Positions 8,191 to 56,470 of a DNA stretch of 64,000 nt are shown piece after piece. The position numbers and the translations under genes were made by a program. The DNA comes from Cyanidioschyzon merolae (lineage: Eukaryota). Each line of letters opens with the position of its first letter. Within the stretch, counting starts at the first letter, position 1. The DNA lies in NCBI GenBank assembly GCA_000091205.1, contig AP006492.2. One strand, written 5' to 3'. The notes under the pieces are model-generated. The model saw only the letters and a list, made by a program, of their open reading frames with translations. It had not been told where the DNA came from and made no database searches.

Positions 8191-8362
8191 CGATACGCGG
8201 TACCGGAATCAAGATGATTACCGATATGGTCCAACAAGGGCGTCCCTGGAATCAACGATCCCGTTACTTAATGGATACGCGGTACCGGAATCAAGATGAT
8301 TATCGATATGGTCCAACAAGGGCGTCCCTGAAAGCATCGATCCCGTTACTTAATGGATACGC
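8191..8362. repeat. 82-bp tandem duplication (about 2.1 units)
   Basis: gatacgcggtaccggaatcaagatgatta[c/t]cgatatggtccaacaagggcgtccctg..cgatcccgttacttaatg is repeated head-to-tail with 3-4 mismatches. Confidence 0.85.
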
Positions 8363-16716: not shown

Positions 16717-17089
16717 CAACAGAGCAGCACGCGTGTAGCAGCAACGACGCGTTCGTGCAGTCCGTAAATCCGATGCTTTCACGATCCGCTGGAATGCGGC
16801 GTGGTGCAGCGCGCTCGCGGGATCGCACCCCGAGATCCTTTCAGCTCGACGCCGGTGCGTCGGGCTATCTTCCATAATTGGACAAAACCTTCCTAAAAGA
16901 TCAGGGATCCCCAACGGTGCGCGGTGAAGCACCGATCATACCACGCCCTATCTCCAAGGTCCATGGTCCATAATTCTTCTCGGATACATTGGTCACTTTG
17001 TACGTTCTATCGTGTGCCGCGTATCTGCATTCCTGCATCGGTGATCGCGCCTATAGCGCCGTTACGGTCATAGCAGAGAGACAGGACGA

Positions 17090-18440
17090 CGTTGGCGTAC
17101 CCCAGAGGACGTCGGCTCGAGATGGTAAACTGATACCCAGGCGCAGATGCCTCTCAGCCTTTTTTGACCGTCAGACTGCCATCAATTTCAGTTTATTCAG
17201 GCACGCTTCGAGACTGTGAGGCTGCACGAAGCAAGAGGATCGCGCTAGCCCCGAGGGTCTCGTCTCCAGCACCGCACATCATTTGATATTGATAGCGGCG
17301 TTGAAGACTCGGTTCACGAACTCCATGCATGTATTGCCTCTGGTGGTGCTCGCCAATGGAAGGAGTCCTCAAACTAGTGCCCTCAGTGCCATTTGCTGCT
17401 CTGTCAGCTCTCCGTGCTTTTCTATCGTCGAAATGCTCCGCTGCATTCTCCCCATCCCGATCTTTGAATGGTACATCCCAGCTCATCCCTCAGACTTTTT
17501 TGAAAATGAACGCAATTCTTCATGCCATTAGGTGAGGATCTTCCCTAATGGAGAAGGATTCGTTCAAGGAAGATGTAATGTGCCACAGTGTGTCACTGTG
17601 TGCTGGGCGATTCAGCGATTCGGCCAGTGGAGCGGTCGATAATTTCCATGATAGAAAACACTTCTTCAGTGGGGTACAACAACGGAACGTACTACGGAAT
17701 GAAAAGCAGCTCTACCCAGATAGAATCGGCAAATGCTCGATCCCTGGGGAATATTGAAATACCATGTTGTTCAATAGAAGGACGTCTCAATACGTTAGGG
17801 AAACCCTTCAATAATTCGATAAAGTGGTTGGTGCTGTTGTATGCGCCTTTATTACGAGCGATAGCGAGGCCATCAAATGAATGCCCTGCAGCTAGAATAG
17901 ATGATGATGTCCTCGTCTTCTTCGATTTCGATCGTACATACATTGGGCCTCCTTTCCGAGAATACCAATATATGCTCCCACCGTTTCATCCGAAGCAAGC
18001 CTCATCGACTGAGGAAACAAACCAAAGTGCCTGTGCTTCATACCGATCGCGACGTCCCAGGAAAGCTGTGGTAGCGATTTCCGTAGACGATGGCCGTGCG
18101 TGAAACTGGATTTTTTGCCTGTTTCCAAGCTTTTACAGGACCAGATGAACAAGATGTCGAGCAACTGAGACGCCTGTGGCAAATGATACCGACAATTTCT
18201 CTTTCCATACGGTGATCAACGGGTCGCATTCTTCCATTGTCCATAAGCAGTCTTCGAGAATATCGGTTGTTTGCCGCAGAGTGCATATGCTTCTTTGTTT
18301 CAGTGTTCCTCAACCATCGGAGTACTTTGGTATAACTGACTTGAAGGAGAAACACAGTACTCGTTGCACTGTTCAATAAAGAATATATCCCACCGGCAAT
18401 TCGTCTACGATCTATACGGTACATTGCATCGTGATGTCGA
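17090..18440 (-). mobile_element. degenerate chimeric element B1: Fanzor 3' module (about 17090-17490) fused to an unrelated ~0.95-kb segment Y
   Basis: The minus strand at about 17283-17325 encodes MEFVNRVFNAAINI, a RuvC-III motif with the Asp replaced by Val. The plus-strand mirror ORF 17283-17531 parallels the mirror ORF of copy A1. About 17090-18440 is roughly 75% identical to 49855-51210. Confidence 0.55.
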
Positions 18441-19307
18441 TCTCCTGCTACACACCCCAGCAGGTCTCCAGCAAATTGGGTTGGAAGACTAGACGAAGTG
18501 TACGCGGTGCTTTCATTGAGATTTTGCATGTTGCATCTGCGAGACAGGTATTCACTGGAGAGCGCAGTGCAACGAAACCTTGGGTTTCGCCGAAACTCCA
18601 GCGAAGACCGGGTACCATGTTTCGAGAGGACGCCTGGGAGTCCTGTGGTCGCGTGAGCAGGAACAGCTCGCCGGTCTGCTGTTGCTTTCGCAAACGTTTG
18701 GAAAACGGAATCGCGGGTGATCGGAAAGCCATGATTTTGGGCGAAGCAGGTTTTACGAGTTCAGTGCGTCCAGTAATCCAGCCACGGCGGTTGTGAGGAC
18801 CTGCCGCAACCCGCTCTGTTGTGGCAGCTATGACATAGACTTGGTGCCCACACTGTTCAGCAGCGTCTGGTGCATGATCCTGGCCAAAGCTCGCACGTGT
18901 CAGCGTTTCCGCCGAGGGCCATAGACGCTCGTGTCGCCAGCGTTTTCAGAGACAGTGTTCCGAGCGTTCGCGTGGCCTTACCTCGCAACCGAAAGGAAGC
19001 GTTTGTCTCCTAGAGTTCGGAATGCTGTTGTCTAAGGTGCGGCGTTTCAGAGTCAGAACACGGACGCGACGCCGCGGATGTTTCGCTGTCCACTCGGCCG
19101 GCTAGGGCGTTCGACGACGGCTCGGTTGCACGCTTGTTCTGAAGCTCTCTGTTTTTCAGCTGCGAGCTTCTTGGAGTTAGGTATCGCCTGCGAGAAGTGG
19201 TGCTTGCCTGAGGGTTCTTGGATCAGATAGATCGGGGGACGCATGCCGGTGCACTCGATGCAGACGGTGGTATTGAGGCGTTGAGCGCGAGAACGCCCAT
19301 TTTCCCT

Positions 19308-20408
19308 TTAAAGAAGAGATGCTAACGTCGCTCCCATTTGCTGTTCCGAGCAGCTCGTGATCACCGTTTTCGAAAAAATGGAATCGAAGCTTGCAGGAGT
19401 GTCCTCAACATCGCTTGCGGATGCGGGCGGCAACAGGGAATCCGACGTAGAATGCGCTCCTGTGCCTCGTGAGACGGGAGCGGGTTCATCCCGCTCGATT
19501 TGAAGGGGCTCGTCGTACAGTACCGCTTGGATAGCCTTGATGAGCGGTAGCTCTGGCTCCGGATGCGTCTGGCAGAGCATCTCGATATCACGTAGTTTTT
19601 CAAAATAGTAGGTTCGTTCTCTCTCGAGATTATCGATGGCAAGCTGCATTTCAGTAATTTTCTGAATCAGCTTGGACTCCTGTTCCCGCGCCAGGCCGTC
19701 TGCAGCATTAACGGCCGGCGGCTCCGTCTTGGTGCCTGGCGATGCAGTGCGCGGCTGAGCCGGGCTCGAGCAAGTCGTGGATTCCTGTGCGGGCGTGCCG
19801 CCACGGGGATGCGTCGTAGCGGAAGCCGCTCGATAGGCCTCCTCCCGCTGCGCCCGAATGTTGCTGTTAACCGCACCCGTGCATCGAAGCGTTCGCGCAG
19901 CGGGCGCATGAAGGCCAGCGGCAGTTTTTGGGCCCGATACAGGACGTCGCTTCATCGCAGCACCTACGGTTTCCCTGCTGACACCGGGCTTTTGTTCGTT
20001 GTACTTGCGGACAGCGGCTTCGCGTCGCTCCACGGCGTTGTAAGGCTGGCCGGCGTAGAAGCGATCGAACACTGCTTTGACCCACTGGAGAAACTCCAGG
20101 TTATCCTGCGCTCTTGCCTTAATGAGTCGCTCGACTTCGATGTGTTTTTCGATACCAACTTTATCCAAAACCGCTTGAAGCACCTTATAGTTCTGTACGT
20201 ACTCGTACTCATGCCGAGCGCTAAAGTTCACTTTATGCAGCGGTACCTTCCCGGGGAAGAGAGCGTCAAAAACCTGACAGTGCGCTGCACCATCTGCGAC
20301 TTGTTCAACTTTCGTGTAACTCAGTTTGAGAAAGTCGTTCAGCCACGATAAGAGTTCCCCCCGAGAAACAAAAAAAGCCCCAGACATGATGCCCACTGCC
20401 TCTGCCAT
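19308..20408 (-). CDS. EB1 / MAPRE-family microtubule plus-end-binding protein
   Basis: N-terminal calponin-homology domain (..ELLSWLNDFLKLSYTKVEQVADGAAHCQVFDALFPGKVPLHKVNF..YEYVQNYKVLQ..) and C-terminal EB1 coiled-coil motif (..QLAIDNLERERTYYFEKLRDIE..). The gene is a single exon. Confidence 0.85.
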   Translation of the reverse strand: MAEAVGIMSGAFFVSRGELLSWLNDFLKLSYTKVEQVADGAAHCQVFDALFPGKVPLHKVNFSARHEYEYVQNYKVLQAVLDKVGIEKHIEVERLIKARAQDNLEFLQWVKAVFDRFYAGQPYNAVERREAAVRKYNEQKPGVSRETVGAAMKRRPVSGPKTAAGLHAPAARTLRCTGAVNSNIRAQREEAYRAASATTHPRGGTPAQESTTCSSPAQPRTASPGTKTEPPAVNAADGLAREQESKLIQKITEMQLAIDNLERERTYYFEKLRDIEMLCQTHPEPELPLIKAIQAVLYDEPLQIERDEPAPVSRGTGAHSTSDSLLPPASASDVEDTPASFDSIFSKTVITSCSEQQMGATLASLL

Positions 20409-22223: not shown

Positions 22224-22829
22224 TCACCGCCTCGTCTGGAGATGGAGGATGCACTTTAGTATCGAGAATGATGCCGTGCACGCGACCTCGGGTGACACTC
22301 GCGAACGCCGTTCAAAAGTCGAAAGCAGTCGCCAGCGGTTTACAGTAGTGGCGGCGAACGCGCCCAAGACAAAACTTCTCCAACTGACGTGCAGACGCCT
22401 CCCAGCCTTTTTGGACCGGCCGCCTACTAAGGGTTTCAACTTTTTCTCATATAATTCCACCTTGAGAGGTTCTTCCGCGAAATTCTCTCTGGTCAACTCT
22501 GGAGGTCTTCTTTCTATCACCGCGCACCTCCTTACATTGATAGCGGCGTTAAAGTCTTGGTTCACAAACTTCATACGTTTCTTGCTATTGATTGTACTTC
22601 CGGATGCACCTAGTCCAGAAACTTTCGCTTTCCTTCCCATGTGCTCTTCTGTTAGCGCTCCGTACTTTTGTATATCTTCAGGGCTCCTCGGGCACTTTTC
22701 CATCTCCACCCTCTGAAGTGTACATCCCAACTCATCGTGTATAGGCGATTTCCGGAACTCATCGATCGGTATCGTAACGAAACGCCTGCGCACTCCTTGT
22801 ATGTTCTTGTTGACGGCGCTGGTTGACAC
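22224..22829 (-). CDS. Fanzor/TnpB-like nuclease C-terminal segment (RuvC-II, RuvC-III), copy A2
   Basis: Carries the same TIPIDEF and VNQDFNAAINVRR motifs. Its C-terminus reads through into flanking DNA because the stop codon present in copy A1 is absent here. Confidence 0.75.
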   Translation of the reverse strand: MSTSAVNKNIQGVRRRFVTIPIDEFRKSPIHDELGCTLQRVEMEKCPRSPEDIQKYGALTEEHMGRKAKVSGLGASGSTINSKKRMKFVNQDFNAAINVRRCAVIERRPPELTRENFAEEPLKVELYEKKLKPLVGGRSKKAGRRLHVSWRSFVLGAFAATTVNRWRLLSTFERRSRVSPEVACTASFSILKCILHLQTRR

Positions 22830-22894
22830 GCTTTCTGGGTCATCCAGTGCCCTGATCCATACGCTACTAAAAGCCTCTTACTCTTATCTTCCTT

Positions 22895-23962
22895 TCAGGC
22901 GCTCAACTGATTGAAGAAATCCGCGGTCGCCCGCTGCTTCCCACAGTATAGATTAACGCGCAGACGAGCCCACCGGGGCTTGGCGTACTCTTTCCACGGC
23001 GCTTCCCAGTCAGCAACACGGACTTTCGTGAATTTCAGAAAAGTTCGAAAGTCCGCTCCTCGGCTCGTCACCTCGCTCATAGCTTCCAGGTGCTCGTTCG
23101 CTCCTGCATTCCATGTCTCAACTTTCTTCCTTGCATTCATTATGCCCGATTCTCGACAGTATCTTGCTCTCGAGAGCTTGAAAAGACGCATGTCTTTCTG
23201 ACGCAAGTCACCGTCACTGCCATCTTCTGCACGCTTCGGTGCTGCGACGGCTATATTCATCGTGTTTCCGGGGTCCACGCCAACGACAAAGTCACTCTCA
23301 TGCACGTTCTGTGTGGCAGGATCCGCCTCCTTCTCATCTTCATGCTTCGTCACGGGCGAAGCCGAAGGCACGATAGGACGATCCGCCTTCAACCGCCGAC
23401 AGTGTGCACACATGGACACTCCATCGGTTTCGATCGTGCCCGTGAATACCCTCTGCTTGCTCACTTTGCGACGTTTGAAATAGAAGATATTCTTCCAGTA
23501 CGTCTCCCGGCTTTCACCGGTGAACTCCGTCTTCCTTCCATCGAACTGCGGACAGGTCTCCTCCATGACGCCGTAGAGGACTCTGGAGTCGATAATCACA
23601 TAGTGCGACTTGATGCTGCACAGCGGAGCGACGTAGAAGCGCTTACCCAGAAGCGCGGCCTTCTGTCGCTCCGGCTCTTCATTTGCTTTCTGACTCGGCT
23701 CCATCTCCGCCTTGCGCTCGAGTTTTCGGTTCAGGAATCCGAAATAGCGCACAATGGGGCGATAACATCTTTCTTCATCTCTTTTCATATCTGGTACCTT
23801 TTCCGCTCGATTCGCCAGCGCCAAGACTGCACGGTGCTCTTGAATAGCCGCGCGGATTACAGAAGCTTCATTCAGGCACCGGCGTGACGTCTTCTTGTCG
23901 ACAAATTCGATCTCCTGTACGTTCTGGCGATCGTTCGTGATGCCGTCGATGATGGCCCACAT
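22895..23962 (-). CDS. Fanzor/TnpB-like nuclease central segment (RuvC-I), copy A2
   Basis: 355 aa, [17 protein letters not shown], near-identical to 1985-3052. Confidence 0.75.
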
Positions 23963-24162
23963 CGCGCGGCGAGAGAGGCCGGGGGGTCCAGCGCAAACAT
24001 GGCGCGTATCATGAAGCGTTCGAGGTTCACGATCATATCGTTCTTCAGGTGCGTGAGGTGCTTGACTGCCCCGCTGGTGTAAACACGCAAGTCACCCCTG
24101 TATCGAGTAACGTTGAAGCGGTATGCAGCATCATTTTTCATGCCGGGCATCCACTCGCTCAT
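23872..24162 (-). CDS. putative N-terminal segment of Fanzor/TnpB-like protein, copy A2 (frameshifted relative to central segment)
   Basis: Near-identical to the 2983-3252 ORF and overlaps the next frame in the same way. Confidence 0.4.
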
Positions 24163-24946
24163 TTCGCCGCGACGTTTCCCCTATAGCAAGCATGAGGTGA
24201 CGAGTAAAGGTCTTGTAGAAGGCACGTTCCGAAACCTCAGCTGTTTCCAAGTGCGTCACGTCGCGATACATCTCCCTCGTCATATGCATCGGTCCTCAAG
24301 AAGCCTTGCAAACACTCCCGGAGTTCGACTCGGCACGGTTTCTGATGGCATCTCGCAACTTTTCCCCGTGCGGAGCAGTAGTATGCTTAAGAAGACAGGC
24401 TCTCACCACCATCTCGTCGTATCGCCGTCTTTCTTGCAGCCTTTATTGTCGGACCTCCCGCTTTTGCTCCTTCGTCCTCTCCTGTTCTTCTGAACTCGGC
24501 ACCGTTTTTTGTTTTTTCTCTGCCGGCTGTCGACGCTGTGCCCCCAGGATCCTCCATTTCCTTTTCCATGACTTTCCTTTTTTACATATTTGGAAATGAG
24601 ACTTCTTTGACCGCTTCTGCTACAAACCGCGAAAAATCACTTGAAAACAGTTACTTGAGGGTTAGTACACAACTGAGGTGAAGGACTGTACTCTGCTACG
24701 ACTGCAACGCAAATACGACCTGTACGGTAGAGCAACAAGAAAACGATTAGGAAAGATCGCGTTTCCCTTCAACGGCGAGATGCGCGTCCCGTCTCATGCC
24801 CGCCAGGTATCCCGGGTGCGCCTAGAGTGCGCGCCGCGTGCGCCACCGCAAGCGTTACAAATCGAAACACGCGCCGCAGCGCCAACGAACGCGCCATGCT
24901 TCATGCTTAGCGTTTTCGGGGGCTCACGTACTAGACGCCGCACAGT

Positions 24947-26999: not shown

Positions 27000-27650
27000 T
27001 CGTAATCTATCGAAAGAACAGAAATCAAAAACTGATTAGCAACAAGATAAGAAATGCTTTCCACCTCTACGATAACCGTTGAAAGGGGAAAGATTTCTGT
27101 AGTTTCGAAAGTTTGGCTTCTAGGCGCAAGGTCATGCGAGCCGGACGAGTCTGCGGGGCTAGCGTTTCATGCTTCCCCCAGCGGCACTCGCTGAGGCGAC
27201 ATCAGATCAGCACATCCGCAACGCCGTTCATTCTGGCATCACAAGTCGTTGGAATGCGTCTGGGCGTCGCCCTGGTCGCAGTGGCTTCCTAGCATTCCGC
27301 TTAGTGTCGCCACAGGCAGTAAGTCGATCTGCGGAGCTTGCAAGCCCCCATAATGATTATGTTACTCGGACCCCGTGTCGAATGAACCACGTCTCGAGTC
27401 GACGCCCTCAGTGTCATGGCAAAGCCGTTCTGTCTCCGTGCTGCATCCGCACGATCAGTATTGAGGCGCTCCTACGGGTGCTCATGGCAAGTTTGGCGCA
27501 CGATGGAACGTACAGAACGACCAGTACATCCGAGAGCAGGTCATGGAACTTGAAGGTGCTGTTCAGCGTGATGGACGCTTTCCCGAATGTCAATTTCCAT
27601 CCCGCAATCTGGGATCCATGGTATATGTACTGAACCTGTAAAACCAAAAA
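27000..27650. repeat. paralogous segment X2, directly upstream of the diverged 1.28-kb repeat partial copy
   Basis: See X1 for the similarity evidence. Confidence 0.5.
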
Positions 27651-27659
27651 GACTGGAAT

Positions 27660-28250
27660 CAGTCGCAACGATGACTCAAACCCGATTCCATGATCTTTCT
27701 ACATGCGAACAGAAGAAATGGGAGCCGCTGGAGACGTATCTCATAAACGGTACCATGGTACTGTCGAATCAAGTTCCTTCAACCACCAAAACCAGAGGAG
27801 GATTTATCTTTCGAGCTGACTCAGTTATTTCAAATAACCACTTTGGTAAAGTTTCTGCGTGAGCTCAAGAAGAGGCCATCAAAGGACGACATCCGATTTC
27901 TTTCCTCGTCTATCCAGGATCGCGTATGGCTTCGCCCACCAGTTGCCTTGAAACAAAAAGGTCGACAAATGAATGAATCCGACATTTGAGCACACTACAC
28001 ATATGGTAAGGAGAAGAACGGAGGCTTGCACGTATGCATTGGATAATATCATTGATTATTTTTCGAAAAACTGTACGAGTCCATCGAGAATCATCTCAAC
28101 TCCACTGACGTAAAGAAATCCATCGGCGACTCGTCGAAGCAGGCACTCTCCGAAATCACAACCGAGAATCCGAAACCCAGGGATGCAATCGAAATCCCGG
28201 ATCGCTGCAACACGCATCTCCATGCTGTACATCTTGCGAACAACTTAGAA
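27660..28250. repeat. diverged partial copy (3' half) of the 1.28-kb repeat
   Basis: About 70-75% nucleotide similarity to 31540-32000 (for example ..gcattggataat.., ..cgagaatcatctcaactccactgacgtaaagaaat..). ORF 27587-27862 ends ..VLSNQVPSTTKTRGGFIFRADSV.., matching the repeat ORF ..VLQSNAVASMTAKRGRFVTTRSV... Confidence 0.55.
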
Positions 28251-30732: not shown

Positions 30733-32010
30733 TCAGAATATCATAGAACCGGTCTATACAGCCACCATAAGCATGTACACTCTGAAGTTTGCATCGTTTT
30801 CAGTGGCCACCAACGCCCGGGCCTTGGCGAGCTTTTTCCGCGACTGGTTCCTGTTCCTCTAGCTGATTTCCGGCTAGAAATACGCAGGTCTCTCCTTGTT
30901 ATCCCGCCCAGTTGTAGGCAATCGAAGGATGCTGAAGGCAGTGCTCCCGTCCATATCTCGTTGCTTCTCGGTGTTGTCAATACATCTAACAGAGAGACAG
31001 TGGTTGCGATCTGGGCATCGCTTGTCATCTCCATGTTCGATGAACGCTGCCTCGAGGCGCACTTGCAGCGGTGACAGTTGACTGTGGTCAGATGCTCCCG
31101 TATGCTCAGCAGGCCTCCTCGTGGTCAGCAGATCGCCGCCCTGTGGCGCATGAGGGCTAGCACCAGCGCCCGGTACTTGCCATTGACGGGTGCAGGAGGC
31201 TTTGTATTTGCTGGCCTCCGCCGCTTCCGTGCCCGATGCAGTGCCCTAGCATCACGTGCTTCTTCAGGGCAATCCATTTGACAAGTACTGTGACTTGTTT
31301 TACAAGCAAGCGCACGCACTTTCATTCGATAAATGATTTTTGGGGCGCCAGCTTACCCGCGATGCAGCGAGCACCGAAACGAAAATCCAGATTTCAAACC
31401 GAGTCCAGCGATTCCGATCCCTCTACGCTCCCTTTGTGGAAAGCGGTGACGCGAGCTCCAAAAAAAGATGTTGCTGCGATGATGGAAATTCGAGCCCAAG
31501 ACGATTTCCTGCTAGAGCTGCGTCGGAAGCCTCTGGACGCACGTTCCGCGAGAGATGTGGTGCTGCAGTCGAATGCAGTTGCATCCATGACTGCAAAGCG
31601 AGGAAGATTTGTCACGACAAGATCGGTGAATCTTCGGCATGAGCTTATGCGGAAGTTGTCAAGCGACGACGCTGAGCTTTTTGTTGTCAATCCAGCGGCT
31701 CGACATGCTGTGCCCAAGAGTTGCCTTGAACCAGACGGATTGAATACTTGAAGAATGCATAGTTTTAGCACACTACGCATAAGAAAACGATAATCTAGGA
31801 GGTTTCTACTTTTGCATCGGATAATGCAATGGGTTAATTTACGAGCCCTTGCTCGAGTGCGTCGCGAATCATCTTGACACCGGTGACGTAACGAATGCCA
31901 GCGGCAGACAGTCGAGGGCGCCACTCCGAAAACACGACCGAGAACCCTAAATCGACTAGTGAACCCCTGCATCCTTTTTGCTGCGTTTGGAATGTCGAGC
32001 TGTATATCTA
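30733..32010. repeat. 1.28-kb interspersed repeat, copy R-A
   Basis: Near-identical to 55181-56470; the ORF-track proteins in the two copies are identical or near-identical. Boundaries are set where the flanks become unrelated. Confidence 0.8.
31362..31751 (+). CDS. hypothetical small basic protein (~129 aa, MQRAPKRKSRFQ...) encoded by the 1.28-kb repeat
   Basis: The ORF is conserved between copies with 3 substitutions and an in-frame 3-nt indel (A7 versus A11 run: APKKD versus AQKKKD), suggesting coding constraint. The N-terminus is lysine/arginine-rich and NLS-like. I recognise no domain. Confidence 0.45.
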   Translation: MQRAPKRKSRFQTESSDSDPSTLPLWKAVTRAPKKDVAAMMEIRAQDDFLLELRRKPLDARSARDVVLQSNAVASMTAKRGRFVTTRSVNLRHELMRKLSSDDAELFVVNPAARHAVPKSCLEPDGLNT

Positions 32011-33168: not shown

Positions 33169-34101
33169 TCATACAATGAGCAGGTCCTGCTTCCCGTAGC
33201 CAAACCGGCCCTTATGACGCTCGAATAATTGAACAAATGCGTCTAAAACGCGCTTTTGTAGCGCGAGAATCTGCTCGTCAGACGGCTCGTTGATCGGTCC
33301 GGGTACGCGCACTGGTTTACCAATCACAACATGGACAGGAACGCGTGTATCTGGCCACAAGGTAAACCAGCGCCCGCGAAACAGCAGCAGTGGAACACGT
33401 GTGCGACGCACGAGCCACAGTCGAAAACGTTGCGCAAACCTAGGCCATGTTACATATAGTTCGTTTTCACCAAACGCATAGACCGGAAGAATATGGGCAC
33501 CGTGGCGCAGCGCCAGACGCAGGAAACCTTTTCGCTTGCGAAGAACAATGCGCTGACAATATGGCTCGGCTAGAACCTGTTCGTGTTCACCGCCCGTGAA
33601 GATAAGCAAGCTGCGTCCGAGTCGCAGTTGCCGCTCTGCAACCGAAGGTGACGCATCCACACAGCCCAACCAGAGCGCAAAGTCGCGTATGAATGGACAC
33701 CAAAGCAGCGCCGACGCCACAAGGTCGCGCCGTTCCAGCCCCGGCGCTACCTTGCTCAAAAAGTCGCAACCATCCGTAAACGTCGCGTAATGCTGCCAAG
33801 CGAGGATTCCGTGCGGATGGGCTGCAAATATGTACTTTTGACTCGAATCTAGGATGCCGCACTCGGCGTGAAGGTGCACGTTCAGAACTCGTTGCACGTA
33901 CCACTTCCACAGCGGGAGGCGCGCGAACGCCGGCCAGTAGCGCTCACCGTGAAGCGGGCCATCGTCGAAAAAGATAAAAGCATAGGCCAACAGGGCTGCC
34001 TTGATGAAGTTCCAGTGACATAAGAAGACGGTTACAATGAAAGATGTCACGGAAAGTAAGCGCGCAACCCGAGTAGGAAATATGTAGGTCCGTAGAGGCA
34101 T
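33169..34101 (-). CDS. DGAT2/MGAT-family acyl-CoA:diacylglycerol acyltransferase
   Basis: N-terminal TM region, HPHGIL motif (..YIFAAHPHGILAW..), ..LIFTGGEHEQV.. and ..GFLRLALRHGAHILPVYAFGENELY.., typical of the DGAT2 family. Confidence 0.85.
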   Translation of the reverse strand: MPLRTYIFPTRVARLLSVTSFIVTVFLCHWNFIKAALLAYAFIFFDDGPLHGERYWPAFARLPLWKWYVQRVLNVHLHAECGILDSSQKYIFAAHPHGILAWQHYATFTDGCDFLSKVAPGLERRDLVASALLWCPFIRDFALWLGCVDASPSVAERQLRLGRSLLIFTGGEHEQVLAEPYCQRIVLRKRKGFLRLALRHGAHILPVYAFGENELYVTWPRFAQRFRLWLVRRTRVPLLLFRGRWFTLWPDTRVPVHVVIGKPVRVPGPINEPSDEQILALQKRVLDAFVQLFERHKGRFGYGKQDLLIV

Positions 34102-34499
34102 GTGCGCGCACGCGTACGCCTCCTCCGACGTACACGCTCAGACACGCTCATATACGCAGGTCATTCCGTATTCTGGGCGCTGTGCAGTGCGCTACCGGGC
34201 GCATCAGCATCAGCGTCGTCGTCAGCGGCGGCGGCGGCGGGGGGATCGGGAGCTGGGCAAACATCGCCGTCGATGCGTGCTCGCCAGCGCCATCTACCAT
34301 GCGCGTGTCGGATCGATGATTAGCGTTTGTCACCTGAGCTGTGTTCCACCTCCGGGAGCATGTACGCAAATGGCTTTTCGCGTTGTATAGCAAAAATGTT
34401 CGATATTCGTTCATTTTGACGAGACAAAAATCCAACGGAAACGTATGGACATGGTCGTCGGCGATCCTGGAGGCCTGTCATCACCGGCTACCTGAAAGA

Positions 34500-34885
34500 G
34501 AAACGTAAAAACCCTCTTCTCGTTGAACATCGAGCGAATGAAGAGCAGGTTTCGATGAGGAAGAAGAGCGGATATAGGCGAGAGAGAGCGTTTAGCCTGC
34601 GGGAAGATGACGAGACTTTAGTGCCACAGAGTGCGCGAGTTCTTGGAATCCTCGCATTGATGCGCCTTACTAGAGGCAATACACGCGTTGAGTTTGTGAA
34701 TCGAGACTTTCATGCTGCTACCTGTATCAGATGATGTTTGGTGCTGGAGACGAAATCCGAGGCGCTGGGGCGAGCCAACTTCGTGAAATAGTCTCGCAGG
34801 GTCGAAGTATCGAAGGAGAAGCTGAAATCCATAGCGGGCGGCCGGTCCAAGAAGGCTGGGAGGCGACTGCAGGTGTGGTATTCAT
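34500..34885 (+). pseudogene. degenerate 3'-terminal fragment of a Fanzor-A-like gene (RuvC-II remnant through C-terminus), opposite orientation to the full copies
   Basis: Plus-strand translations align with the copy A1 C-terminus across frame breaks: ..LNIERM.. (compare IPIDEF), ..RVEFVNRDFHAA.. (RuvC-III) and ..EKLKSIAGGRSKKAGRRLQV.. (compare KKLKPLVGGRSKKTGRRLHV). It has internal stops and is about 70-75% identical at the nucleotide level. Confidence 0.6.
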
Positions 34886-36702
34886 TTACCCTAAATAGTC
34901 GTGGGATATTTCCACTCCGCTGACTTGCATGCATGAGGCGGGGCTTTCCTGGTACGCGTCCAGATTTCTGCACCATTCCTCGAGGGTCCACCAGTCATCA
35001 CCTCCAGGCGTGCATCCAATCGGAGATACTGGTTCGACTGCGCGATCCACTTGATGTCGAGTGCCTGTCGTAAGCGCTCGCTCCGACGCATATAGCGCCC
35101 CATCGGACAACGTACAGAAACAGAACAACTCTGCGATACGCTTGTGGATGTTGGCTGCATGCGTGGTTCACCATCGCAATTCAGTGCCGGGCAATGTACG
35201 CACTCACGGCGGTTGCCGCGAGCTGGCACTCATCTAGGCGCCCCATACCAGTCCTGCCTTCACATATCGACTGTGGCGGTGACGCATCTCGCGTTGCTGC
35301 GAGCGTTCATGGCAAGCACGGTATCCGACACGTCGCTGGGTGGATCTAAGATCGATCCCCAACAGATAGACTGGACTGGACGGGAGTTGCTGAAATGTAG
35401 ATGCGTCTCGGAAGGAGCGGCGTTTTCTTCGTTCATTGCCGATAAAACGCGTGCACCTAGGGGAATCTTCCCAGATTCAGCTATTTCATACCATAAAAAT
35501 ATGCGCGTCCATGGATCCATGCGTGGATGGCGATAAACTCGCGACTTGTCGCGAGCGCAACATCGACGACCTGAGCGCGGCCTACGACGCATTCAGAACG
35601 GGAACAAAGATAGCCGCCATGCAGACCTCCGCTGTATCAGACTCTGCACCACGAGACGCTCTGCAGCGCGAAAGCCGCTGCGTCCTTGCCAGCGAACGCA
35701 AACGCAAGCCTAGCCTTTACGACAAATGGGCTGCGAGAGCGCGAGAGAGATATGCCAATATCGCACGCGGACCGCAGAGGGATTCGGGCCCAGATCCAAT
35801 AATGTTGACCTCCAGCGGAACGCGGATGTGGTGATTGCAAGGACGTGTCTGCCATTGACGAGAACTCCGGGCATGCTCCGTGCCCGGGCGGCAGTTTCTC
35901 TTCCCGTTCTGCGAGCAACAGACGATAATCCCATCTCCGGTTGTATGCATCCCAGCGCCCCGGTTACCCGGGTATTCAAGGTCCCTGCTAAGAGTCCGGT
36001 GAGCAGCTTTAGGCACGGCGCTTCTGTAATACCGACGATTGATTCTCGTGCCATCACGTGATGCCTTGGAAAAGATGTTCACGGCGGAGGATAGCTCCGG
36101 ATTCTCCTGCGCTAATGTCGCGAAAACGCAGGTTTGCATATACCAGTTCGCCAACAGGCGAACAGTAGACCCCACGACGCAAGCTAGTCCAAGCCTGTTC
36201 GCAGACATTGTGAGCACGTCGCACGTCTGTTTACGAAACTACCAAACTCGCCGACACTGTTCAGAGACTGCTCTCGACTTGTCAATGCCCAATGCTCCAC
36301 AAGCTCACGCAAATCCCATCAAGATCATCAAAAGACCTTCACGCGCATCGCAATACCATCCGCGGCAACGATGGTGCTCCGAATCATCATCAGAGCGCGT
36401 TGTTGCGAAGCAGGTACCAGCATGTCCATGGCTCTCTAGAGCTCAGCACACGTCCCGCACGAGAAGCCGCGTCTCGCGAGGACCAAAGTCGCTTCCAGTA
36501 CCAGTGCGATGGTGTTGACGGCCATGCAAGGCTCCACCCAAAGGCAGCCCTACCTTGTCGCAACAACGCCGAGGTCGTATCGAGGTCGCTATACTGCGCC
36601 AAATCTCCACAGCGACCTGCACTCGTGCCTACAGCTTCCGTTTTTCGTTGCCATGCTGATCATGCATCTAGAAACCTCGTCGATTGTTTGCGTTTCGTAT
36701 TG

Positions 36703-37176
36703 CTAGGAGCGCGCTTGTCGCGTTTCACGAACCAGTCGCTGGAAGAGTGCAAGTCCGGCCAGTTCTGCGGGCGGCTGTCTCTGCTCTGTTATATATAGAT
36801 AGAGTAGAGGACTTTCGTGATCGAGAACTTGCTCAAGTTCACTGACATCCTGCTCAGTGAACGTTGCCAGGTGCCTCTGCGTCCACTCGCCAAGAAGGAT
36901 ATCGAGCTCCCGCAGACCGCGCTGGTTCGCTCGATAAAGGCAACGACGCTTACGCGTCTCTAGGGCGTTCGCGTCAGTGGCCGTGCTCACGCCCCGCAAC
37001 CAACGGCGTTGGGTCAGGGTGCAAGCACCCAGGTAACGTTCAACGGTTTGCGCCCTAAGAGAACACAGCTGTGTCCGCTCTACCAGATTCAAGCGACGCT
37101 CAACGAGTCCTCTACGAGAAGCCGCTTTCCCACTGAGTTCCTGCAGCATGCTCACCCAGAAGAGCCTCCACTTCAT
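36703..37176 (-). CDS. succinate dehydrogenase assembly factor 2 (SDHAF2/Sdh5, SdhE-like)
   Basis: ..RRCLYRANQRGLRELDILLGEWTQRHLATFTEQDVSELEQVLDHESPLLYLYITEQ.. matches the SdhE/DUF339 signature (RGxxExDxLLxxF....L......E..L...D.DLY.W). Confidence 0.65.
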   Translation of the reverse strand: MKWRLFWVSMLQELSGKAASRRGLVERRLNLVERTQLCSLRAQTVERYLGACTLTQRRWLRGVSTATDANALETRKRRCLYRANQRGLRELDILLGEWTQRHLATFTEQDVSELEQVLDHESPLLYLYITEQRQPPAELAGLALFQRLVRETRQARS

Positions 37177-42494: not shown

Positions 42495-44401
42495 TGCACC
42501 AGAATCGTGACAATGCGAGAGATGCTCGGCAGGCGCACATCCCGCGAGAAGCTTTCCCTAGCGTCCGATCAAGGCAAATCCTTTTCCTAAGCTTTATTCT
42601 GGTGCATCCGCGAAGCTGGGCATTGCACTCGAAGACACTGAGCCAAAGCCTGTTTACTTGAAAGCGCTTTGTCTGAATGAGGAACGGTTGCACTGCTTGG
42701 CAGGATTCGATTCGAGATACGATATTCCGGGCGCCTAATGACAGAGGTTTTTCGGAGCCTTTCGACCATGCGTAAAAATGACATGCGCTCGCGGACATGG
42801 TTTCGGGTACCAGCGCTGGCGTGCTGGCGTTTTAGTAAGCGCAGTGCACGCTGGAAGACGTGAACCAGCATGCTGGTTTTGTTCTTGTCTGGTTTTCTCC
42901 CCGGTATTCAATTAAAGTCTAGTGTTCTGTGGATTGGAGAAAGTTCGCGGAAGGAGTTGATGCCGCCATGATTAGCTTGCGAGAACAACGACCTTCGTTG
43001 TTCAAGCCACGCTTTCTACGGTCAGCCAGTGAATGAACTGCCCTTGTCGTAGTGCTTAGTGTAGACAGAGCGCACCCGAAACGCAGCTTGTCGAATACGA
43101 TCTACACGATTGTCTCTTCGTCAGTGCATTCCAATCCATTTGCTGTCTAAGAAAAACGATTAGAGTATACACAGGATGTGAAAGCTCCGCACCACTGATT
43201 CGAACGGTGATGAAGAGTCGCAAATGGACAAGGACAAAAGTGCGCGTCTACGGGAGATCGTCACTTGCTGAACGTCACAGAATGGATTTCGCACTGAAAT
43301 GCGAATGCTCTCAACAGGAGGTATGGGAGCTCTTCATTTTCGGTGAGACTTGCCTAGGGAAATGCTAGCCTTGAATACCGGTACCTAACACGGGAAAGAC
43401 CGCTGTTCGTCAAGCAGAGGCAAGCGAGCGTGACGACAACACCAGCCCTAACAACGATTTTATGGTGTGTTCGCCTACGAATTGTTGCAAGGGCTGAATT
43501 GTTCAACACCGCATTCTTCGTTGACGCGCTTTGTGACTTGTGCTCGCCAGATTCTTGTGTCTTGTTCGTAGATACCATGGACTATGATCACTCAAATGCG
43601 CTGAAGCGGTTCGCATTAGCGATTCGTGTTGAGCAGTTCTTCGTGCTAGCATCTTCTCCCTAGTTCAATCGAGTCCGAGGCGTGTTCTCCTTTTCGAATG
43701 CCATATTCAAGCTCATGCTTCTATGGATGAGTCATTCGTATCTGTGATACGGTTTTTCGACGAACCCCTCTGCGTCGACTGGTTCTACACATTCACCTGC
43801 CGTGCATTGCAGTGCTGGTTCGCTGCTCGTACGCGGGAGAAAGCGGAACGGCGCGCTTCGGTCCACGGACGTGGTCGAGCCGGACCAGGTGACGAAAAGG
43901 TAGTTGAGGAATGGGAGAAACAAACGAAGAACAGGCGAGTTTCAGTGTCCACGTCTACGTATTGGATCTGAATACTGCGGAATAAAGGATACGGAGTAGT
44001 GCGTTAGTATCCATGCTAGCCCGCCAAGTCATGAGAAGGCGAGGAAACTCCTGAACAAAGAAGAGAAAAATCCTCGCGAAACGACACCAAGCAAAGATCG
44101 ACAGGAGGAACGGTTTACGCGGAAACAATACCCTGAAATCACTGTCGAGGCCTGCCTAACAAAACTCCTCACCAGGAATAATTTCTCAAAAAGTGCAGTG
44201 CAAGACGCCAGTGGGGATCACGTCGCTCTATACTCGAGAATGTCGTGCCTGGCTCCGCTCGCGAGGACGCACCGCATCAAGCAGTTGCTTGTAGGAGTTC
44301 CGGTGTCGGAACAGCTGGCTACCGACCTTCCTCTCGCATACCTAGACCAAACCAGCATGCGACAACACAGCTGATGCTCCAGACAGAAGACGACATACCG
44401 C

Positions 44402-44800
44402 ATGATCGTCGGATTAGAGCGTCGCACACATACACACTTCCCAGAATACCTGGAGGCATTGGCGCGACACGTCGGTAACCGGAGTGTCTACAGAGCAGGT
44501 GCCCAAAAGCATCATACCAGCCTCATAAACCATATGCTGGTCACCGTCGATTGGTTCGTGCAGCGTACACTGGAGGCGTTGCGCGCTCAACGTACTGTCC
44601 CAGCTAAGTTGGGACTGATAAACGGCATTCGCGGAGTATCGATGACGGTCAACGACGAGCTGGTGACTGCGGAGACGATCGAGGAGCTCGCGAGTACGGA
44701 ACAGATGTCGCAGTGGAAGCGAGTTCGCTTCCGATCGTCCAAGCTCATGGCGTTGCTCTCGGAATCGGGTACACGGAACTCGTATCCGAAGCATGTTTGA
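44402..44800 (+). CDS. hypothetical small protein (132 aa)
   Basis: Protein-like composition (..EYLEALARHVG..VDWFVQRTLEALRAQR..ETIEELASTEQMSQWKRVRF..) in an otherwise gene-poor 3.5-kb stretch. A longer antisense ORF overlaps it, so the call is uncertain. Confidence 0.2.
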   Translation: MIVGLERRTHTHFPEYLEALARHVGNRSVYRAGAQKHHTSLINHMLVTVDWFVQRTLEALRAQRTVPAKLGLINGIRGVSMTVNDELVTAETIEELASTEQMSQWKRVRFRSSKLMALLSESGTRNSYPKHV

Positions 44801-45994
44801 AACGGGATACATGCCTTTTTCGAATACTGCGCTTCTGAGATTTCCTGCACTGAGCGCTCCTAAGCAAAGCAGACTTGGTTCCTGGATTCGAGCACCCAAC
44901 TTCCTCGGGGATCTATTCGATGTATTTCCCATACGACACATCGAGACCCAGTACATCTCCGCAGACAATGTTGTCCTGTGCTGATTGGCCTCCTCAGTGG
45001 GCTACCACTGGTCTCTGCACACAAGTATGAAGCACTCGAACGTCTTCACCAAGGGCAGAAGCGGGGCTCGTTCCTGTGCAATTGCCATCCATGAGTTCAA
45101 GATAATTCACATAAATCACGGGCACTAGTGTACACAGAAACTGGTATGGACCGGGAGAATGAAACAGAGATGGATTCACGAGGTGGGTTACGAGAAGCTG
45201 ATCGGACGCCAGACGGAGAAGCTCCTCCCCGTGGGACGCTTACTTTGGCGTGACTCAATGAGCAAAAATGCACGCAAGCATTTGCTGCACAAAGCTTGAA
45301 CGCCTTGGTCAACATCAGGCAATGTCCTGTGATCCAGTAGCGCCCAGCTGTTTCGTGTCCAGCGAATTTTCCCGAACATCGTCTTGCTCCCTGCGTGGGC
45401 AACCTGTTAAAACGCTAAACACTTGTGATAAGAAAATCACTGCCAACGAGACACAGAATTGCATTACCGCCTGGAACAAGGCACTGGTAGTCTACCGTTC
45501 AGCTGTCCGAACAGACCGGAGCGCCTTATCCATACATCGTGAACGGTTTTCATCGGCAATCGATGAACAAATAGGGTAGTCCACGACTAGACATTTCTGC
45601 GCATCTGGTGCGCTCCGTTCAAGATGACACGACACCTATCGTGACGCAAGCGCCCCCAGCGGTACCTGGGTAGGCACCACGCGATCACTGAGAGTGTACG
45701 TCGCAGCCTCTTCCGCGGCATGCGCAGGTCGCAGCGCCCGCCCGTATATCTACGCGATGCTCCTCGGAGTCTGCCTAATCAGATCGCGCAGCGTCATCAG
45801 AGGCGCTGTCAGTAAAAACCGAAACAGGTTACCTAAAACATATTGCATGCTGCGACTTATGGTAAAGATGTGCGCAGTGACGGCTGGATACCTGCTCTCC
45901 TGGGGCCGATGCAACCAGGAGTCACGTCCCCTGGCGGGCAGACGCGAAGCCGCTTCAACGGCTGGCGTAGAGCCTGCCGCCCCGCCCGCATTCG

Positions 45995-49854: not shown

Positions 49855-51210
49855 AACTATAGACGGTGACTATAACGGAAAACGTTCTACGGTCATGGAG
49901 GATAAACTGGTATCCCTTCACGGGCACCCCGCACCAGCCTTTTCTTGACCGGCCACCTGCCATCGTTTTTAGTTTCTCCTTGCACACGTCGAGCCGGAGC
50001 GCGTGCTCTGTGAAGTTGGATCGCGTCAGCTACGCAGGCCTCTCTTTCAGCACTGCACATTTTTCTGACACTGAGGGCGGCGTTGAAGTCACGGTTCACG
50101 AGCTCCATGTGATTATCGACAATGATGGAAGTCGTCAGTGCAAGTATTGCCAGAACTTTTCCCCTCTGTGCCGTATGCTGCTCTGTCAGAACCCCGTTCC
50201 TTTCTATCGCCGAAGCGCTCCGTTGCGTTTTCCATCTCAACCTTTTGATTCTTTATTTTTGAAAATGAACGTATTTTTATGCCCTGTTTGAGGACCTTGT
50301 TGGAGGGATTAGAACTTTCGGAAGGAAGACGAAAGATGCACTGGTTTTACCGTGTGCTGAACGCTTCAGCGATTCGCCCAGTACAGCGATCAATTCTTTT
50401 CAGGATTGCAAAGACACCTGCAATGGAGTTCAACCACGGAGCGTGCTGCGGCATGAAAAGCAGCTCTACGCGGTAGAATCGAAAAAAGCTCGAACTCAAC
50501 GGGAATAGTCAAATGCCACGTTGTCCAGTAGGAGGATATCGCCACCGGTCTGGGGAGACCCTTCAATGATTCGACAAAGTGGGTGCTGTTTTATGATCCT
50601 TGTCTCAAGCGAAACTGAGGCCGCCAAATCATTCCACTGCAGCTAGAAAAGATGATGATGTCCTCGTTCTCTTCTACATCGATTGTACCCACAACTTGCT
50701 CCCTGCTCGGCGAATACTCATGTACGCTCCGACCGTTTCGTCGGATGCAAGTCTCATCGACTCAAAGAACAGACCGACGTCGCCGTGCTCCCTACAGATC
50801 GCCGAGTTCCAGAAAGTTTTTCATGGGTGCCGTTTCGGTGGAAGATGGCCGTGCGTGAACTAGAAGTTTTATTGGGACTGTCTCCCAGTGTTTCCCGGAC
50901 AACACGAACAAACTTTAGAGAAACAGAGCTGCTCGTAGTTGCAACAATCGTCGCTTTTGCTTTCCTTTTGGTGATCAACGAGTCGTTTTCTACCATTGAT
51001 CGCAAGCACGCTTTGAGAATACCAGTTTTGACGCAGAGCGCATCCACTTGTTTCTTTCAGTGTTCTGCAACCATCTGAGTACTGTGGTATGATTGATCTG
51101 GACGAGGAATGCAGTCCTCGTTGCACTGTTCAGTAAAGAATATACCGTATTGGCAATTCGTCTACGACCTATACAGTACCTTGCATATTGATGTCGATCT
51201 CCTGGTATAT
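49855..51210 (-). mobile_element. degenerate chimeric element B2: Fanzor 3' module plus Y segment
   Basis: Collinear homology with 17090-18440 across both the Fanzor-derived part and the Y part. The conserved GGCCGGTCAAGAAAAGG core lies at about 49940-49960 on the minus strand. Confidence 0.55.
49893..50240 (-). pseudogene. truncated Fanzor/TnpB-like ORF retaining Zn-finger-like region and RuvC-III (VNRDFNAALSVRKM), lacking RuvC-I/II
   Basis: The ORF-track protein aligns with the copy A1 C-terminal segment (..YGALTEEHMGRKAKVSG.. to NGVLTEQHTAQRGKVLA.., VNQDFNAAINI to VNRDFNAALSV). The homologous upstream sequence is replaced by segment Y. Confidence 0.6.
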
Positions 51211-51306: not shown

Positions 51307-52344
51307 ATGTGGCCCAGCGGAGCTGCTGGCGCCGGCGCCGCTTTCGGCAGTCCAACCGGTAACCGCACCGGTGCTGTGCCGAATGTTTCGAGGCCTCTGA
51401 AGGTGCTGTGCAACGACATGCTTGCCACAATAGGTCGCTGGAGGACTGTTTCTGGAAGCATTAGGGCGGCAAGAGCGTTGTCCGTTGCACTTCGAGCACC
51501 GGCAGCTGTCGTGGCTCGCGAGCAGGCCTCCAGCGTCAGTGTAAAGCGCACAAGCCTGCCTGGGGGCAGCACTCTACTGAGAAACACTTCTGCCCAGTCT
51601 CTGCTCGCTTCGTCCGCGCTCAACGTTTCATCAACTCGAGAGGAACGTTTGGCAAGGCACGTTGGGTCTGGACGTGTTCAGAGAGCGGTAACGCTGGCGG
51701 CTGCGTGCGCGCCGCGTCCTCGGGCAGTGCTCCCGAGTGCTGGATCGAACCAGAACTTTTGCACAGCGTTAAGGAAACTAGGTACCGCCTGTCTCTACCA
51801 ACAGCCACAGCCGTGGCACCACACAACGATTCTGGCTGTGCGGAAAAGTGGCCAAGTGTGTCTGGTCGGCGATGGGCAGGTATCCATGGGTGAAACCATT
51901 CTCAAGGCGAATGCACGCAAGGTACGGCGCCTAGGCGACTCGGTTATTGCGGGCTTTTCTGGTGCCACTGCGGATGCGTTGACGCTTTTCGAGCGGTTGG
52001 AACAAAAACTTGAGGCGTACCCAGACCAGTTGCTGCGAGCATCTGTCGAACTCGCAAAGGAATGGCGTCAAGACAAGGCCTTGCGACGTCTCGATGCGCT
52101 TCTTCTGGTCGCTGACCGTTCGATAACGCTCACGCTCACGGGCACCGGGGACGTGCTGGAGCCCAGTGACGGCGTCATGGCCATCGGCAGCGGTGGTATG
52201 TACGCCCTGGCGGCTGCGAGGGCACTTCTGGAGCTGGAAGACTGGACGGCGGAGCGAATCGCTCGACGAGCTATGCAGATTGCCTCAGAAATATGTGTAT
52301 TTACGAACGAGCAACTAACATGTGAAGTGCTCAGTGGTGCATGA
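51307..52344 (+). CDS. hslV: ATP-dependent protease subunit HslV (ClpQ) with ~110-aa N-terminal presequence/propeptide
   Basis: Mature-domain hallmark [76 protein letters not shown]... The catalytic N-terminal Thr is preceded by a long extension, as in organellar eukaryotic HslV. Confidence 0.9.
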
Positions 52345-55180: not shown

Positions 55181-56470
55181 TGCATCCATGCCAGAATATC
55201 ATAGAACCGGTCTATACAGCCACCATAAGCATGTACACTCTGAAGTTTGCATCGTTTTCAGTGGTCACCAACGCCCGGGCCTTGGCGAGCTTTTTCCGCG
55301 ACTGGTTCCTGTTCCTCTAGCTGATTTCCGGCTTGGAATACGCAGGTCTCTCCTTGTTATCCCGCCCAGTTGTAGGCAATCGAAGGATGCTGAAGGCAGT
55401 GTTCCCGTCCATATCTCGTTGCTTCTCGGTGTTGTCAATACATCTAACAGAGAGAAAGTGGTTGCGATCTGGGCATCGCTTGTCATCTCCATGTTCGATG
55501 AACGCTGCCTCGAGGCGCACTTGCAGCGGTGACAGTTGACTGTGGTCAGATGCTCCCGTATGCTCAGCAGGCCTCCTCGTGGTCAGCAGATCGCCGCCCT
55601 GTGGCGCATGAGGGCTAGCACCAGCGCCCGGTACTTGCCATTGACGGGTGCAGGAGGCTTTGTATTTGCTGGCCTCCGCCGCTTCCGTGCCCGATGCAGT
55701 GCCCTAGCATCACGTGCTTCTTCAGGGCAATCCATTTGACAAGTACTGTGACTTGTTTTACAAGCAAGCGCACGCACTTTCATTCGATAAATGATTTTTG
55801 GGGCGCTATCTTACCCGCGATGCAGCGAGCACCGAAACGAAAATCCAGATTTCAAACCGAGTCCAGCAATTTCGATCCCTCTACGCTCCCTTTGTGGAAA
55901 GCGGTGACGCGAGCTCAAAAAAAAAAAGATGTTGCTGCGATGATGGAAATTCGAGCCCAAGACGATTTCCTGCTAGAGCTGCGTCGGAAGCCTCTGGACG
56001 CACGTTCCGCGAGAGATGTGGTGCTGCAGTCGAATGCAGTTGCATCCATGACTGCAAAGCGAGGAAGATTTGTCACGACAAGATCGGTGAATCTTCGGCA
56101 TGAGCTTATGCGGAAGTTGTCAAGCGACGACGCTGAGCTTTTTGTTGTCAATCCAGCGGCTCGACATGCTGTGCCCAAGAGTTGCCTTGAACCAGACGGA
56201 TTGAATACTTGAAGAATGCATAGTTTTAGCACACTACGCATAAGAAAACGATAAGCTAGGAGGTTTCTACGTTTGCATTGGATAATGCAATGGGTTAATT
56301 TACGAGCCCTTGCTCGAGTGCGTCGCGAATCATCCTGACACCGGTGACGTAACGAATGCCAGCGGCAGACAGTCGAGGGCGCCACTCCGAAAACACGACC
56401 GAGAACCCTAAATCGACTAGTGAACCCCTGCATCCTTTTTGCTGCGTTTGGAATGTCAGGACGATATCTC
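55181..56470. repeat. 1.28-kb interspersed repeat, copy R-B
   Basis: Near-identical to 30733-32010. It lies immediately upstream of the DUF21-CBS gene. Confidence 0.8.
55820..56212 (+). CDS. hypothetical small basic protein, second copy
   Basis: Paralog of 31362-31751, differing by the in-frame indel. Confidence 0.45.
   Translation: MQRAPKRKSRFQTESSNFDPSTLPLWKAVTRAQKKKDVAAMMEIRAQDDFLLELRRKPLDARSARDVVLQSNAVASMTAKRGRFVTTRSVNLRHELMRKLSSDDAELFVVNPAARHAVPKSCLEPDGLNT

Follow-up and report, generated by a model that had tools for sequence, protein, structure and literature searches.

The ~3.2-kb Fanzor1 element CMe-1A of the red alga Cyanidioschyzon merolae was described by Bao & Jurka 2013 (Mob DNA 4:12, PMC3627910) as a family of ~150 copies that share ~80% identity with a consensus of 3169 bp. 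It has no TIRs, and its TSDs were left undetermined in the published description; its 5' 635 bp are equivalent to a separate element, TE-N2_CMe, of ~70 copies, and some C. merolae copies of CMe-1A still code for intact proteins (PMC3627910). In Fanzor and TnpB systems, the sequence coding for the guide RNA starts in the 3' part of the ORF and extends as far as the right end of the transposon, just outside which the guide is located (Saito et al. 2023, PMC10432273). With an old Fanzor1 family on record in the same genome since 2013, decayed fragments of it are to be expected. The locus analyzed here is ordinary debris of this known family and of little importance by itself; what is mildly new is a deletion junction that it shares with an unrelated metagenome locus, pointing to nuclease-less derivatives that were still propagated.

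The remnant lies between the DGAT2 and SDHAF2 genes of the window, by which we mean the whole 64-kb stretch of DNA that was analyzed. The earlier note had reported at this place a solo, inverted 3' fragment of a Fanzor in a 2.6-kb gene-free interval. Its placement is borne out by the Pfam hits of both neighbors and by the measured interval of 2601 bp, inside which the remnant is found. The DGAT2, SDHAF2, and Rcd1 proteins of the window are 100% identical to BAM80287.1, BAM80288.1, and BAM80289.1 of C. merolae 10D, and since these accessions are numbered consecutively, we infer that the reference annotation is gene-free between DGAT2 and SDHAF2. The remnant itself is very probably a non-functional, internally deleted, and terminally eroded CMe-1A copy, extending over ~34307-34925 on the plus strand. 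Its parts and the flanking genes are as follows.

33169-34101, minus strand: DGAT2 gene, start codon at 34101 (Pfam DAGAT, E 1.6e-46)
34307-34444, plus strand: what is left of the CMe-1A 5'UTR, corresponding to consensus ~774-905 (nhmmer, local alignment, blastn)
34445-34611, plus strand: N-terminal piece of the Fanzor1 ORF, from the ATG through ~50 codons (MDMVVGDPGGLSSPAT*...), interrupted by a stop codon and a frameshift (tblastn, alignment)
34605-34630, plus strand: deletion junction, consensus ~1050 joined to ~2822-2840 (ends of two local alignments, restart of the protein alignment)
34612-34887, plus strand: C-terminal piece of the Fanzor1 ORF, 94 codons corresponding to aa 640-733 of 734 (blastn, tblastn, DNA profile)
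34888-34925, plus strand: short tail in place of the terminal 81 nt of the consensus (alignments; right limit approximate)
36703-37176, minus strand: SDHAF2 gene (Pfam Sdh5, E 2e-17)

Seven CMe-1A-derived pieces were found in the 64-kb window, all of which are pseudogenes. Those outside the DGAT2-SDHAF2 interval are listed here together with the TE-N2_CMe-like sequences.

139-791, plus strand: decayed Fanzor remnant, recognized at the protein level only (CMe-1 aa ~453-643)
1437-4563, minus strand: copy A1, full-length (consensus 12-3125 at 82.9%)
3934-4560: TE-N2-like 5' module of copy A1, equivalent to the solo TE-N2_CMe-like element
17124-18450, minus strand: copy B, a ~1.3-kb composite (window self-comparison)
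22306-24824, minus strand: copy A2, without the TE-N2 module (consensus 657-3169)
27013-27629, minus strand: solo TE-N2_CMe-like element (79% to consensus 16-636)
44018-45415, plus strand: decayed and internally deleted Fanzor remnant, recognized at the protein level only (aa 13-288 and aa 647-697)
49935-51207, minus strand: copy C, a ~1.3-kb composite (window self-comparison)

Several observations on these repeats deserve mention in their own right. The window self-comparison aligns A1 (1451-3878) with A2 (22361-24788) at 98.7% identity over 2428 bp. The two copies, each ~83% identical to the consensus, share the in-frame stop and the frameshifts and differ in the last ~70 nt; the pair points to a probable segmental duplication or gene conversion of a dead copy, not to fresh transposition. 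Copies B and C, which are 71% identical in the self-comparison (17155-18450 and 49935-51207), have a common layout, in which ~940 bp without recognizable Fanzor coding are followed by GCGTTCATTTTCAAAAA, a motif of the CMe-1A 5'UTR, and then by ~350 nt from the 3' end of the ORF. The ~940-bp module also occurs upstream of a deletion copy in a metagenome locus (L060, 4480-5419) and could represent a separate non-autonomous lineage. At 16947-17126 on the plus strand, a TE-N2_CMe-like fragment in inverted orientation (consensus 84-262, 71%, E 3e-18) adjoins the 3' end of copy B; thus, the alternative tail of B is TE-N2 in reverse (E 2e-29, reverse complement). The same origin was considered for the tail of the DGAT2-SDHAF2 remnant and is not supported there, the only match being 16 nt long, at 34969-34984 (E 0.03). 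The solo TE-N2 element and the A1 module agree with the separate ~70-copy element of the published description (PMC3627910). Unrelated repeats are also present: a 1.27-kb pair of 98.7% identity (30734-31996 and 55192-56457), a ~240-bp family of ~70% identity (27934-28175, 31712-31951, and 56173-56412), and a further repeat at 8019-8219 and 32067-31867.

Judged by sequence, the parent family of the remnant is CMe-1A Fanzor1. The reference for all comparisons was the published CMe-1A consensus DNA (3169 bp) with the CMe-1 protein (734 aa), both from the supplementary files of PMC3627910; in addition, a 602-aa protein was rebuilt from copy A1 by bridging one in-frame stop and two frameshifts. The rebuilt protein recovered 84 homologs, most of them from hot-spring metagenomes, with a Tetrabaena protein among the distant ones. 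A profile of 17 homologs matched the PDB entries of Parasitella (9cf0, E 3.9e-18), Spizellomyces (8gkh, E 2.5e-14), and Guillardia (9cer, E 2.7e-3) Fanzors, compared with only E 0.82 for the single rebuilt A1 protein. Pfam gave no hit for the Fanzor pieces among the ORFs of the window and did not recognize a Fanzor in five full-length homologs, one of which had a weak Cas12f1-like_TNB match (E 0.007). Because Pfam is silent on these sequences, the Fanzor1 assignment is drawn from the profile search of the PDB and from the published consensus. The residues D484 (-DPG-), E656 (-DEFRTS-), and D725 (-NRDxNAA-) are invariant in the 17-protein alignment and correspond to the RuvC catalytic Asp/Glu/Asp. 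The parent family has, then, both the similarity to Fanzor1 and the catalytic residues of RuvC; the remnant has an established DNA homology to the CMe-1A consensus within the host genome and lacks the two consensus termini of a complete element.

It should be noted that the flanks of the metagenome loci L011-L085 have features of their own. Immediately upstream of the common element start (..GCGCTCGATA), at about 1800-2000 in loci whose match begins at 3001, each copy has one of about three recurrent and mutually unrelated sequences, one of them TE-N2-like; downstream of the terminal GGCGTT, the flanks are often G/T-rich (GGTG repeats). These flanks suggest modular 5' ends of the elements or, alternatively, insertion into repeated targets.

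The similarity of the remnant to the 3' ends of other copies, described in the earlier note, is supported at both the DNA and the protein level. Comparison of 34100-35300 with the whole window by blastn returned four significant matches, all in reverse orientation, as expected of a fragment inverted relative to the full copies: 34622-34890 matches copy B (17391-17124; 69.5% over 272 bp, E 8e-26), 34691-34887 matches A1 (1660-1462; 69.2% over 201 bp, E 2e-15), 34691-34874 matches A2 (22570-22387; E 6e-15), and 34799-34859 matches copy C (49995-49934; E 4e-5). The A1 match leaves the similarity standing against the limit of E > 1e-3 that had been set for matches to the full copies. The alignment to a consensus that the earlier note had proposed gives 68% identity between 34629-34874 and consensus 2840-3088, with a blastn match to consensus 2889-3088 at E 5e-21, and tblastn places aa 640-733 of the CMe-1 consensus protein on 34612-34887 (50% identity, E 6e-23). 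A DNA profile of 21 full-length metagenome copies identifies 34629-34873 as profile positions 2500-2747 (nhmmer, E 7.8e-29), and 51 of the fetched loci match 34629-34880 when the 2.6-kb spacer is searched against them by blastn. Identity over this piece is 68-70.5%, at or just under the 70-75% given earlier.

The C-terminal piece retains a recognizable RuvC-III motif (-EFVNRDFHAA-, the Asp codon being GAC at 34705-34707) and a basic tail, GGRSKKAGRRLQV, as in copy A1; the earlier note had identified both. The RuvC-III Asp is the only catalytic residue that survives. The single-frame translation of the flagged region reads ...ETLVPQSARVLGILALMRLTRGNTRVEFVNRDFHAATCIR*CLVLETKSEALGRANFVK*SRRVEVSKEKLKSIAGGRSKKAGRRLQVWYSF..., with in-frame stops TGA at 34732-34734 and TAG at 34789-34791, and the protein alignment of this piece contains two one-codon gaps and zero frameshifts. 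Thus, the stops reported previously are present, and the only frameshift is found in the N-terminal piece. The span of 34500-34885 first assigned to the C-terminal module is likewise correct in part: C-terminal homology begins at ~34612, while 34500-34611 derives from the N-terminal end of the ORF. The RuvC-II equivalent of the earlier description is absent. The apparent match of ITGYLKEKRKNP to VTIPIDEFRKSP was rejected, because 34480-34610 corresponds in its DNA to the SPAAGKKRKT segment near the N terminus, translated in a different frame; also rejected, as spurious, was a tblastn alignment that carried the A1 C-terminal ORF into these positions. Lysine/arginine-rich sequence produced the supposed RuvC-II motif, which is an artefact.

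The evidence that carries our reading lies immediately upstream. The 21-copy profile aligns 34318-34503 with profile positions 290-474 on the same strand (nhmmer, E 2.6e-16), local alignment pairs 34307-34611 with consensus 774-1050 at 62% identity, and blastn matches consensus 827-969 to 34361-34510 (E 1e-10). From 34445 onward the window reads ATG GAC ATG GTC GTC GGC GAT CCT GGA GGC, corresponding to MEKEVEDPGGPVSPAAGKKRK of the consensus; the stretch ATGGACATGGTCGTCGGCGATCCTGGAGGC translates as MDMVVGDPGG..., compared with MEKEVEDPGG at the start of the consensus protein. Pairwise tblastn places CMe-1 aa 1-49 on 34445-34591 (E 3e-4), and one frameshift separates the start codon at 34445 from the remainder of the N-terminal piece. 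Since 34307-34611 consists of CMe-1A 5'UTR, the ATG, and N-terminal codons and is collinear with the C-terminal piece on the plus strand, the remnant is an internally deleted copy. Of the two origins offered by the earlier note, internal deletion is the one borne out, and the description of the fragment as solo or stand-alone is not supported.

Alignment to the CMe-1 protein resumes with aa 640, at position 34612, and ~1.8 kb of the ORF (consensus ~1051 to ~2821-2839) is gone, including REC/WED, RuvC-I, and RuvC-II. A short GACG(A/G) match, read from the sequences, occurs at both consensus breakpoints and suggests that the deletion may have been microhomology-mediated. No counterpart is found in the remnant for consensus 1-773, which removes the TE-N2-like 5' module, for ~1051-2839, or for 3089-3169.

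The loss of the last segment bears on the term "right end," which does not fit the remnant. Its homology to the consensus ends at 3088 of 3169, and the terminal 81 nt are missing, i.e., the segment that in nearly all full-length copies contains a conserved AGAC..GTCT hairpin, a second hairpin (GGCG..CGCC), the motif ACTACTGTACA, and an 8-12-bp terminal hairpin ending in GGCGTT. In its place stands a short tail, ..TTTACCCT.ATAGT.GTG.., which the remnant shares with copies B and C and with the metagenome deletion copy (L060m), and all four cease to match the consensus at ~3084-3103. By these shared features, the remnant is placed in a diverged subgroup with B, C, and L060m that is marked by the different tail. 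The two limits of the remnant, 34307 and 34887, are approximate, as divergence or subfamily-specific sequence obscures what lies outside them, and the ends could have been truncated on insertion or eroded later.

As an eroded deletion derivative of CMe-1A, the remnant retains ~130 nt from the end of the 5'UTR, the ATG, and ~50 N-terminal codons joined directly to the final ~94 codons; it lacks the first ~770 nt of the consensus, ~1.8 kb from the middle, and the terminal 81 nt. The deletion presumably arose in an ancestor that was later copied at least once. One copy would then have been inserted between DGAT2 and SDHAF2 once the C. merolae lineage had split from Cyanidiococcus and a third lineage, and would have decayed neutrally since. 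The remnant is unable to encode a nuclease, and its effect is most likely a longer spacer and nothing more.

The history of the spacer supports this course of events and also bears on whether the remnant was put to use by its host. Eight metagenome contigs with the same DGAT2 protein cluster (L001-L008) are 99.3-99.8% identical to the window across the whole 2.6-kb spacer, including the remnant. The Rcd1-Sdh5-DAGAT-...-EB1 block is syntenic in Cyanidiococcus yangmingshanensis (L009) and in the third lineage (L010), in which the Sdh5-DAGAT spacer measures 901 bp and 873 bp, respectively, compared with 2601 bp in the window. The orthologous-locus comparison proposed in the earlier note thus finds CMe-1A absent from the ~0.9-kb spacers of both relatives. 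Neither the CMe-1 protein nor the 21-copy profile has a hit in the 20.9-kb loci of L009 and L010, and the consensus DNA gives only two TE-N2-like matches of 35-45 bp, in L010 and outside the spacer. Searches of the window's spacer against the two orthologous spacers by blastn and tblastx found nothing alignable, nor was an empty site found. The rest of the spacer, including the remaining ~1.1 kb of extra length, matches no repeat and no orthologous spacer.

These comparisons are most simply read as showing that the copy was inserted within the C. merolae lineage and fixed before the present population diversity; absence from the two relatives may in principle instead reflect loss there. If so inserted, the copy can be dated to the interval between the split from Cyanidiococcus and the present diversity of the C. 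merolae-like population. With a divergence from the consensus of 30-38%, compared with ~17% for A1 and A2, the remnant is old, in agreement with the earlier description of a decayed, long-resident family member.

Several host features were recorded along the way. Gene order near the remnant is conserved with Cyanidiococcus, but owing to its transposon copies the window has about twice the distance between DGAT2 and EB1. The genes at the EB1 position in L009 and L010 have Pfam CH and EB1 domains; in the window, an EB1 homolog look-alike (19308-20408, minus strand) and an HslV-type protease subunit look-alike (51307-52344, plus strand), both read from ORF translations only, are ordinary host genes. 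The eight C. merolae-like contigs differ in whether they have a GCGGCG unit at 34225-34230, within a G/C-rich run (34213-34245); this polymorphism is of the microsatellite type and lies ~120 bp upstream of the ATG of DGAT2.

Co-option of the remnant as a cis-regulatory sequence, as part of the DGAT2 promoter or 5'UTR, is unlikely. It is suggested by position only, the remnant starting at ~34307 and being located 200-800 bp upstream of the ATG of DGAT2, and by the fixation of the remnant in 8/8 environmental contigs; on the other side, the DGAT2 orthologs of two relatives manage without it, with spacers of ~0.9 kb. Nor is the variant density of the remnant below that of the rest of the spacer: in the population sample, 4 columns are variable in the 608 bp of the remnant and 20 in the remaining 1993 bp. 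No constraint on the remnant is seen by variant density among the eight contigs, in what is an underpowered comparison.

Evidence on whether the deleted form was itself copied comes from a locus present in two metagenomes (L060 and L062), in which consensus 843-969 is joined to 2840-3084. The junction stretch of the remnant (34504-34628) aligns with its equivalent in this copy with a score of 60, compared with 22 +/- 3 for shuffled sequences, 0/300 of which reach 60. The neighbors of the L060 locus differ from those of the remnant: it is bordered on one side by the ~940-bp module that B and C also have, and on the opposite side by a further CMe-1A 3' end. Copies B and C have a different deletion (consensus ~890/923 to 2737/2756). 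The same junction at a locus with different neighbors indicates that the deletion is older than both copies, and an independent copy with that junction implies that the deleted form was duplicated or mobilized at least once. With two independent loci, this is suggestive of a propagated deletion derivative and falls short of a demonstrated mobile family; unlike a MITE, which has both termini with TIRs or TSDs, the remnant is missing both consensus termini. It is very unlikely that these copies belong to a small, mobile lineage, defined by the ~1050|2840 junction and the alternative tail, whose 3' RNA guides intact CMe-1 in trans. Such a lineage, if real, would be the eukaryotic counterpart of guide-only TnpB derivatives.

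The next reading, that of the locus as a solo, 5'-truncated right end with the left part wholly absent, draws on the fact that pairwise blastn within the window finds only the 3' piece significant, and on the Fanzor1 elements of Chlamydomonas, among which 5'-truncated copies with intact 3' ends are common (PMC3627910). We nevertheless regard it as highly improbable: the 5'UTR, ATG, and N-terminal codons stand directly upstream (E 2.6e-16 and E 1e-10 in the searches above), and the 3' end is itself incomplete.

Equally improbable is an orphan omega-RNA locus, i.e., a transcribed scaffold with a flank-derived guide serving a Fanzor encoded elsewhere. The location of guide RNAs at the ORF 3' end and right end (PMC10432273) gives this idea its appeal, as the remnant keeps the ORF part of the presumed guide region; the deleted form was apparently copied at least once, and some CMe-1A copies yield intact proteins (PMC3627910). 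However, the right end is not kept, and the missing 81 nt include the terminal hairpin. The remnant (210 nt) folds with a z-score of +0.43, 124/200 shuffled sequences folding at least as well, whereas the 3' 209 nt of the consensus, with a terminal hairpin present in most copies, have a z-score of -1.85. Rfam has no match to the remnant at E <= 1, and the population sample shows no excess conservation. The retained sequence is also ~30% diverged from every full-length copy, and the protein closest to it among the 84 homologs is ~52% identical over the retained part; seven of seven window copies are pseudogenes. There is no positive evidence for the orphan guide-RNA locus that the earlier note had offered as a possibility. 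For CMe-1A as a whole, the guide-RNA layer would follow from analogy with other Fanzors. The consensus MFE structure projected on 34 copies is 80.6% paired, compared with 80.4% for shuffles; the covariation score of these copies is reached by 67/500 shuffles and is not above chance, and therefore no claim of a conserved guide-RNA fold is made. RNAalifold finds almost no consensus structure (-3 kcal/mol) in two MAFFT alignments of the 3' ends, in part because the terminal hairpin occurs in two registers.

That the similarity is due to chance or low complexity is virtually impossible: the lysine/arginine-rich stretch 34480-34610 does yield spurious protein alignments, the RuvC-II match among them, but the 3' piece is supported by DNA E values of 1e-21 to 1e-29, a protein E of 6e-23, and matches in 51 loci.

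Among known systems, an eroded deletion derivative of this kind is closest to CMe-1A itself, which resides in the same host genome, aligns with the remnant as consensus DNA and as protein, and is represented in the window by full copies 83% identical to the consensus. The difference is one of extent, as the remnant holds only consensus ~774-1050 and ~2840-3088 and has a different short tail. The Chlamydomonas families CRe-1/2/3 decay in the same manner, with frequent internal deletions and preferential retention of the 3' part of the ORF, but are Helitron-associated and have intact 3' termini (PMC3627910), whereas the remnant has none. The structurally characterized SpuFz1 (8gkh), PpFz1 (9cf0), and GtFz1 (9cer) are homologous to the parent family and share its rearranged Asp/Glu (-DEFRTS-)/Asp triad; the remnant, which keeps the RuvC-III segment only, cannot fold into such a nuclease. 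The guide-only, or miniature, IS200/IS605-TnpB derivatives of prokaryotes keep both transposon ends and a complete guide-RNA scaffold. While these miniature elements differ from the remnant in keeping both ends, the remnant being without both consensus termini, the two are alike in being deletion forms that keep end-proximal sequence and that, for the remnant probably, were copied after the deletion.
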